In this document: positions 32,739 through 33,842 of the stretch, piece after piece
How the letters are laid out: each line of letters starts with the position of its first letter
Position numbering within the stretch: the first letter of the stretch is position 1
NCBI RefSeq assembly: GCF_056712565.1
Contig: NZ_JBWXXM010000002.1
Reading direction: 5' to 3' (one strand)
From: a plasmid
DNA: 64,000 nt
The notes under the pieces: model-generated
Database searches by the model: none
What the model saw: only the letters and a program-made list of their open reading frames with translations
Told to the model about the DNA's origin: nothing
Program-made: the position numbers and the translations under genes

Positions 32739-33842
32739 CTAACGACTACCACTTTTAAGTATGTATTGAGCCAGTTTTATATTCAGGCACACCATATTGC
32801 ACTCTAGCTCTTTCATCATTCTTGAAGAACTCTTAATTAAGTATTCTTCAAGTGGGCCAGCATATGCCCCTGATGTCACGATCGTTAGTTGCGTAAGAGG
32901 ATGAGTCAAACTCTCAATGCCCTTCAGGATGTCATTCTGGACAGCAGCAATATAAACAGGCGAAGCCGCAATCAAATATTCATCATTCGGGCTGGACTGC
33001 ATTAACTGGCTTATAGTTGCGCAACGGTTATGCTTACCTAGTGATTTTGTGATGGCTTTCCACCAGAGATCATGCCTGAATGGTACTTGATGAAATGTCG
33101 CCTCGTAAGAGGGCACCCGATCTCGACTATTTAAAAACCCCATCCCGGCAGAGATTATCCACAACTCCAGATTTCTGGTTGAGTTTAAAATTTCCTTTGC
33201 CGTAGACCAGTGATTACCTGAATACAAGGACAATGCCGGTACCGCCTGATTACTTCTGGCGTCGTCTACAATGTTACTCCAGGCATATGCTGCGTCGTCC
33301 GGGGTTTGTTTTGGATCTATGTCCAATGTCGGCCAGACGTGGCCCTGATGATTCTTGCCCTTTGTACAGGAAGTGATTAAGTGTACTGAGCGTTCAGAGA
33401 ACATTATCTTCCTTACATACCCATAGAACAGCTTTCTAAGAACGGTGGGCTCGCCTGAAAATTACAAATCAGCCCCTTTCACGGCATCATTTTGATTCTT
33501 CGCGTCTGCCCCCAGTAAGATGACCGGTTTTCTGCATGACAGTGTTATTCCTAACAAACGCAACACAAAACCACGCCAGCCAGAGCAAATTTTTTCATTT
33601 GCTGCGTAAAGCCTATTGTTTTCTCTTTTAAGCTTCGCCCACTCGTTACAGAGGGTAACATCATCAAGCGCTGTTATATGCTTCGCCTCACCTTCGACGA
33701 TAACGGTATGGATACCGTATGCTGTAAATCTCATACTATTTTCCAGAACCCAGTTGCGGTATTCGTCGAGTCCACCTTCGGAACCGGTAGCTCTGCGCCA
33801 CATTTCAATTTGCTTGTGTGATGGGTCAAGTGTACTTGTCAT
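32739..33842 (-). pseudogene. Unknown gene: a single in-frame TAA (33462-33464) separates a 126-aa ORF from a 221-aa ORF in the same frame
   Basis: ORFs 33462-33842 and 32739-33404 share a frame with no other stop between; downstream ATG has an AAGGAAG RBS, so two separate genes remain possible. Confidence 0.35.

Follow-up and report, generated by a model that had tools for sequence, protein, structure and literature searches.

The 64,000-nucleotide stretch of plasmid DNA analysed here (the window; contig NZ_JBWXXM010000002.1 of NCBI RefSeq assembly GCF_056712565.1) carries on its minus strand two open reading frames (ORFs) of 126 and 221 codons that lie in one frame and are separated by a single in-frame TAA. 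Such an arrangement raises the question whether the two ORFs are the remains of one gene or two genes in their own right. The initial annotation considered both options, i.e., a gene of ~367 amino acids inactivated by a nonsense mutation or, in view of a reasonable ribosome-binding site in front of the downstream ORF, two genes, and it left the product unrecognised. We compared the locus with its homologues in diverged plasmid lineages, characterised the protein families to which both ORFs belong, and weighed the alternative explanations for their arrangement.

Gene Layout

The upstream ORF, orfA (33842..33462, minus strand), comprises 126 codons and corresponds to the RefSeq hypothetical protein WP_001426317.1 (126 aa); its stop codon, TAA at 33464-33462 (minus strand), is followed by a T, giving UAAU. 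The downstream ORF, orfB (33404..32739, minus strand), comprises 221 codons, ends at a TAG and corresponds to WP_000490638.1, a DUF6884/DpdC-like, stand-alone member of the YaaA superfamily. The starts of the two ORFs lie 438 nt (146 x 3) apart, and a hypothetical product running across the orfA TAA would count 126+1+19+221 = 367 codons, so that the arrangement described in the initial annotation is borne out by the coordinates. The intergenic spacer of 57 nt (33405..33461, minus strand) is free of stops, its read-through translation being FSGEPTVLRKLFYGYVRKI, and contains the Shine-Dalgarno sequence of orfB, AAGGAAG (33414..33408), in agreement with the ribosome-binding site noticed earlier; that of orfA is GAGG (33851..33848). 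With the base composition of the window, the probability that 19 codons contain no stop is 0.40, and a shared frame combined with a stop-free spacer is expected at 0.40 x 1/3 = ~0.13 per co-directional gene pair; the same-frame arrangement is within chance expectation. No terminator-like site was found between orfA and orfB, and the two genes are probably co-transcribed. orfB has a conserved start codon, ATG, preceded by a Shine-Dalgarno sequence of its own, and begins there. A simple scan of 32600-34600 gave no sigma-70 promoter-like site, and an Rfam scan of the same region, spacer included, gave no structured element above threshold. A sub-threshold match to Hammerhead_HH9 (34498-34562, minus strand; 22.1 bits vs. 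a gathering threshold of 52, E 0.019) falls within the coding sequence of the DUF4942 gene and is most likely due to chance.

Plasmid Context

The 1.2-kb orfA-orfB region is present with 100% identity in hundreds of plasmids of ~200-300 kb from Escherichia, Salmonella, and Enterobacter, and with at least 99% identity in 1000 PLSDB records; orfA by itself is 100% identical in ~1000 IncHI2 plasmids. The plasmid records inspected in detail are typed IncHI2A, and the window is IncHI2 plasmid backbone. In all of the RefSeq/PLSDB rows listed (60/60), orfA and orfB are annotated as two separate CDSs. The gene order of this backbone is DNA cytosine methyltransferase, DUF1173, coiled-coil, and DUF4942 genes, then the divergent orfA and orfB, followed by small genes and by the hns gene of the plasmid; the IncHI1 plasmid R27 shows the same synteny. 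The DUF4942 gene (Pfam, 2e-26) and the gene for a coiled-coil protein of ~400 aa, which overlap (34473-36505) and diverge from orfA across an intervening region of 630 bp, form a pair that is kept in IncHI1 and IncHI2; the coiled-coil protein has weak matches to SMC, LmuB, and JetC-like coiled coils. Between the coiled-coil and DUF1173 genes lies an IS21-family element (ISEc62-like, 36827-38796; istB 36827..37627, istA 37624..38796), which is also present in pCFSAN061772_02 and missing from pEC_HLJ255.

An IS1 copy with both inverted repeats located (31943..32710, plus strand) lies 28 bp downstream of the orfB stop. Truncation of orfB by this element was considered and ruled out, because the TAG precedes the end of IS1 by these 28 bp and because the same TAG ends orfB in lineages L009, L012, and L028, where ordinary genes and no IS1 follow; it is also kept in L029, the sequence of which ends too early to tell what lies downstream. 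In pCFSAN061772_02 (L001) IS1 is a simple insertion with a 9-bp duplication, GGAGAATTG, on both flanks. The left flank of the IS1 copy in the window, GATGCTGTA, lies within an MBL-fold hydrolase gene (flank region 31196-31969). This points to an IS1-adjacent deletion of ~2.47 kb in the window, which would have taken away the 3' end of the MBL-fold gene together with hns of the plasmid and two small genes for hypothetical proteins. The same order of MBL-fold gene, IS1, and orfB occurs in pEC_HLJ255, with no hns or small genes annotated in between.

Stop, Spacer, and Frame in Diverged Lineages

Three diverged lineages could be aligned with the window, i.e., L012 (89% amino acid identity for orfA), L028 (~86%), and L029 (~82%). 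The TAA occupies the same position in all four sequences, and orfA homologues at 82-94% identity end in ...GADL or ...GVDL. In L012, the closest of the three, both ORFs lie in one frame with a single stop between them, as in the window. In L028 and L029, by contrast, the spacer measures 58 nt, which places orfA and orfB in different frames, and both ORFs are nevertheless intact; the spacer of L028 contains, moreover, a second TAA in the frame of orfA. The spacer is the least conserved stretch of the locus, and only its end proximal to the Shine-Dalgarno sequence is well conserved.

Some plasmids carry disrupted copies of orfA. In a lineage recovered from two independent datasets (L009 4001-4440 and L010 118-557) a 2-nt insertion in orfA, with AAAAGAGAGAAAAC in place of AAAAGAGAAAAC, causes a frameshift, while the identity of orfB is still 99-100%; a Tn3/TEM-1 element is located directly upstream in L009. 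In pEhoE1-1 (L025, IncHI2A; 4001-5341) ISKpn26, an element of the IS5 family, interrupts orfA towards its 3' end, and orfB has been lost for the most part, with no more than the last ~46 residues detectable. This disruption implies that the locus is dispensable in at least one natural plasmid. The close orfA variants P0003 and P0007, which exceed 126 aa, pass into sequence unrelated to the locus and not into orfB; their ends look like the product of an IS insertion such as that in pEhoE1-1.

Independent Distribution of orfA and orfB

By tblastn the orfA family was found in 3420 and the orfB family in 3024 PLSDB plasmids, and the pair was seen only in ~1000 IncHI2-type records. None of the distant orfB loci (R27, other IncHI1-like plasmids, IncL pOXA-48, contigs with an IncFII replicon, Nissabacter) has an adjacent orfA, and none of the distant orfA loci (IncI/K, IncX3, IncF(K), metagenomic plasmid contigs) has an orfB. 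The two families are independent of each other. R27 does hold a frameshifted, unannotated remnant of the orfA family (MTGNGINTVRINNEVKHISELD...; L027, NC_002305.1, 6725-6917, minus strand), which is situated just past hns on the opposite strand and not beside the DUF6884 gene of that plasmid.

These distributions bear on the idea of an obligate two-component module, in which orfA and orfB would act together as, for example, an enzyme and its small regulator or partner. The genes are co-directional, lie 57-58 nt apart without a terminator-like site between them, and have been kept as a pair in all IncHI2-type lineages examined, all of which speaks for such a module. However, each family occurs without the other at every more distant locus examined, and orfB is almost fully conserved where orfA is frameshifted (L009, L010). 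We therefore regard an obligate module as improbable.

The orfA Family

An exhaustive phmmer search yielded 78 representatives of the orfA family, 40 of them at E<=1e-10. They are mostly 50-170 aa long and share a C-terminal core corresponding approximately to orfA residues 37-117, in which the motif G-I-(N/H)-T-V...H-I-T-x-L-D...L-C-x-E-W-x-K-L...L-Y...G-W-R-G...L-R-L-x-G (residues 45-101) can be recognised. L64, W68, and G98 are invariant across 29 family sequences (alignment A1), and the GWRG motif is conserved. Family members end 10-25 residues past the LRLxG...LP.K motif, which is about where orfA itself ends, and three longer members (204-220 aa) carry the orfA-type domain at their C-terminal end. 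A 390-aa match (P0107) was rejected as a family member, being an unrelated repeat protein. A Pfam HHA match of one family member (E 0.0097), not among the ten longer members that were re-scanned, was discarded as noise. The AlphaFold2 model of orfA (mean pLDDT 78.7, pTM 0.47) has two helices at the N-terminus, then a beta-hairpin and a long helix; core residues 50-100 reach a pLDDT of ~90. No significant match to this model was found by Foldseek in the PDB, where a pTM of 0.47 makes fold matches meaningless, and the orfA profile had no match among PDB sequences.

The annotated start of orfA is probably over-extended by 36 codons, and the conserved product would then be a protein of 90 aa that starts at Met37 (33734..33462, minus strand; codons 37-126). 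We base this on three observations, namely that the counterpart of Met37 is the first residue in most family members and that the region of codons 1-36 (33735-33842 in the window, 2893-3000 in L028, 202-309 in L029) is interrupted in L028 by a TAG (codon 28) and has lost the ATG in L029. For the conserved core, dN/dS values of 0.31-0.79 (Nei-Gojobori, six pairwise comparisons with small substitution counts) point to purifying selection that is only moderate.

Another possible explanation is that orfB is the only real gene, in which case orfA would be a spurious ORF situated in an intergenic region or a long 5' leader. Consistent with this, the first 36 codons are not conserved as coding sequence, orfA has no match in Pfam, PHROG, NCBIfam, or PADLOC, its copies are frameshifted or disrupted by an IS in some plasmids, and its pairwise dN/dS rises to as much as 0.79, a value that derives from few substitutions. 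However, the core forms a clear family with invariant residues and is predicted with a pLDDT of ~90, the members of this family are called as separate genes in many unrelated plasmid contexts, and in the three diverged lineages the position of the stop is conserved and the core is open. It is thus very unlikely that orfA is spurious. Rather, we consider orfA to be a real gene, which defines a widespread family of small plasmid proteins lacking a Pfam, PHROG, or NCBIfam model; its members are encoded in regions for maintenance and regulation on many enterobacterial plasmids. For orfA the earlier statement that the product is unrecognised holds, and no description of its family was found in the literature searched. 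For orfB, which is recognised by both Pfam and PADLOC, it does not.

The orfB Family

The match of orfB to Pfam DUF6884 (PF21818) is marginal (30.4 bits vs. a cutoff of 30.0, E 5e-7, residues 50-175), and most orfB homologues have a precomputed match to the same model. Seven PADLOC models of DpdC are matched, the best one being PDLC02818 (4e-59) and the six others ranging from 1.6e-20 to 3.5e-14. The alignment with the best profile begins at orfB residue 6, which is profile position 3, and covers positions 3-233 of 319, so that orfB lacks the C-terminal ~86 positions. Both family motifs are intact, i.e., CxxxK as C13-T-K-G-K17 and (L/I)SAxxG as I84-S-A-G-M-G89, and C13, K17, I84, S85, and A86 are invariant in an alignment of 16 sequences (A2). 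All 16 of these share Met1 of orfB, followed by HLITSCTKGK, and this common Met1, together with the onset of the DpdC profile, leads to the conclusion that the ATG of orfB is the native start of the family.

The relatives of orfB at 97% to ~35% identity are 183-265 aa long, both in a set of 24 proteins and, separately, in the 120 listed out of 208. Because this length holds for the whole clade, orfB is a short form and not a truncation. The dN/dS values of 0.16-0.29 (Nei-Gojobori, six pairwise comparisons with small substitution counts) are indicative of purifying selection. With respect to structure, orfB conforms to the YaaA-like alpha/beta "cantaloupe" fold; no match to its profile was found among PDB sequences, and a Foldseek search of the PDB with its model gave no significant match.

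In Pfam, DpdC is assigned to DUF6884 (bioRxiv 10.1101/2025.02.24.639861). According to the Pfam authors, this family is characterised by the CxxxK and LSAxxG motifs and by a "cantaloupe" fold like that of YaaA, with a cleft that binds DNA and a pocket predicted to serve in base flipping (PMC11701544). DpdC, the one characterised member, converts dPreQ0 in DNA into dADG, i.e., it hydrolyses the nitrile of preQ0 to an amide (PMC10164549). By analogy, orfB would be an enzyme of the YaaA/DpdC superfamily that binds DNA and probably flips bases. Following the mechanism proposed for the family, DNA may be bound in a positively charged cleft, and the CxxxK and (L/I)SAxxG motifs may line a pocket to which a flipped-out base is presented. 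Assigning a specific biochemical activity to orfB would be an extrapolation, since dpdA and dpdB are not found nearby and the C-terminal part of the profile is missing.

One Gene or Two

Homologues of both ORFs are separate, shorter proteins throughout; no fused orfA-orfB protein was encountered among 26 close and 78 representative orfA matches or among 24 and at least 120 orfB matches. A search for single long homologues had been proposed in the initial annotation as a way to decide the matter, with homologues consistently encoded as two genes speaking against a nonsense mutation, and the latter is what was found. We conclude with high confidence that orfA and orfB are two independent, intact genes, that their shared frame is incidental, and that the TAA at 33462..33464 is the native terminator of orfA. 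This reading rests on the lack of any fusion, the conservation of the TAA, the lack of conservation of the frame, the purifying selection on both genes, and the fact that the families occur independently, and it bears out the second option of the initial annotation, which the ribosome-binding site of orfB also supports.

The opposite view, in which one ancestral gene of ~367 aa was inactivated by a nonsense mutation and the ORFs are the halves of a pseudogene, has in its favour the single frame, the single TAA, and the stop-free 57-nt spacer, as seen in the window and in L012. Two ORFs in one frame with one stop between them are indeed what a classical nonsense-split pseudogene looks like. The present locus differs from it in that there is no long orthologue among the family representatives, the stop is conserved in three diverged lineages, a spacer of 58 nt breaks the frame in two of these while the ORFs remain intact, dN/dS is below 1 for both genes, and orfB begins where its family and the DpdC profile begin; a split gene would also not explain two families that are distributed independently. 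The nonsense mutation suggested in the initial annotation is refuted by the criterion set there, and we regard it as extremely unlikely. An equally negligible probability attaches to programmed read-through of the TAA, yielding a minor orfA-spacer-orfB fusion besides the two separate products, for which the shared frame and the stop-free spacer of the common IncHI2 lineage could be adduced, but which is countered by the UAAU stop context, by a spacer that is the least conserved part of the locus, changes from 57 to 58 nt and has acquired a second in-frame TAA in L028, and by the lack of an Rfam or other structured element in the spacer. UAAU is among the most efficient termination contexts in Escherichia coli. 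Low-level read-through in the window and in L012 would be compatible with the sequence taken by itself.

With orfA and orfB as two separate genes, the locus needs neither a pseudogene flag nor resequencing, and the existing annotation of two CDSs is correct. The locus is already known in kind, since both proteins are in RefSeq and the orfB family is a curated Pfam entry. The by-products of our analysis, judged from sequence, would be at the level of annotation, i.e., a short orphan DpdC-like clade and the orfA family. orfB and its ~3000 plasmid-borne relatives can carry the label DUF6884/DpdC-like; they are orphans without dpdA or dpdB nearby.

Comparison with Known Systems

Genes of the orfA family resemble the accessory genes for plasmid maintenance or "stealth" in that they adjoin, or lie a few genes from, hns, hha, kfrA, and proQ/finO. 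They occur near H-NS genes (L014/L015, IncHI2, R27), near Hha genes in IncF plasmids of Klebsiella and Serratia, near KfrA in L016, near ProQ/FinO in IncI/K plasmids, and near ParA/MipZ and a "DNA distortion polypeptide" in IncX3. This link with genes of nucleoid-associated or nucleic-acid-binding regulators is circumstantial, being drawn from gene neighbourhood. In sequence and fold, orfA is not similar to Hha, H-NS, or solved structures. Guessing from its neighbours, orfA might be a small regulatory or nucleoid-associated accessory protein, a suggestion that we put forward as possible, though doubtful.

For orfB the obvious point of comparison is DpdC (TgtA5 cluster protein 2), with which it shares the profile matches (DpdC models and PF21818) and both motifs, although its 221 aa fall short of the full-length architecture of ~300-320 profile positions. 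Neither dpdA (TGT-like) nor dpdB (DndB/ParB-like) is annotated in the ~30-40 kb that flank the locus on each side in the equivalent plasmid pEC_HLJ255, or in the ~8 kb on each side in pCFSAN061772_02. In view of the partial coverage of the profile, the short clade, and the lack of annotated dpdA and dpdB nearby, orfB was rejected as the DpdC of a Dpd system. We also considered whether orfA could supply the C-terminal portion of DpdC that orfB lacks (profile positions 234-319), but orfA has no PADLOC match at E<=1. A relative of orfB at 40% identity (P0212) bears the UniRef name "TgtA5 cluster protein 2"; its locus was checked for a real dpd cluster and holds none, so that this protein is an orphan as well. 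YaaA (DUF328/UPF0246, PDB 5caj), the peroxide-stress DNA-binding protein of E. coli, shares 13% identity with orfB and was not recovered by Foldseek.

Distant orfB homologues (L026 6995-7678, L024 8001-8705, L005-L008) are found in various settings. In a pOXA-48-type IncL plasmid (L026) the homologue comes after an HTH gene and is separated from umuDC by two small genes, and in Nissabacter it adjoins a umuC-like gene. On contigs with an IncFII-type replication gene, genes for an unknown protein of 405 aa, a DUF6884 protein, and an SNase nuclease form an apparent operon with overlapping starts and stops. These contexts, which include two cases beside umuDC-type genes, hint at a theme of DNA damage or DNA processing. 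It is conceivable, though we would assign it only a small likelihood, that the short orphan DpdC-like (DUF6884) proteins, which conjugative plasmids of enterobacteria carry in their thousands, have a plasmid-specific, DNA-base-directed function. They might process damaged or 7-deazaguanine-modified bases encountered during transfer, or counter DNA modification by host or phage, and in IncHI2 the small protein orfA could then serve as an accessory factor specific to that lineage. The in-frame stop has no part in this scenario and is incidental in it, too. If it is true that they act on modified or damaged DNA during transfer, this would be of interest for plasmid biology. A large clade of short orphan DpdC-like plasmid proteins was not found described in the literature searched. 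Compared with the DpdC of the Dpd system, the clade to which orfB belongs is a large one of orphans of ~215-230 aa carried by conjugative plasmids, including IncHI1 (such as R27), IncHI2, IncL pOXA-48, and contigs with an IncFII-type replicon.
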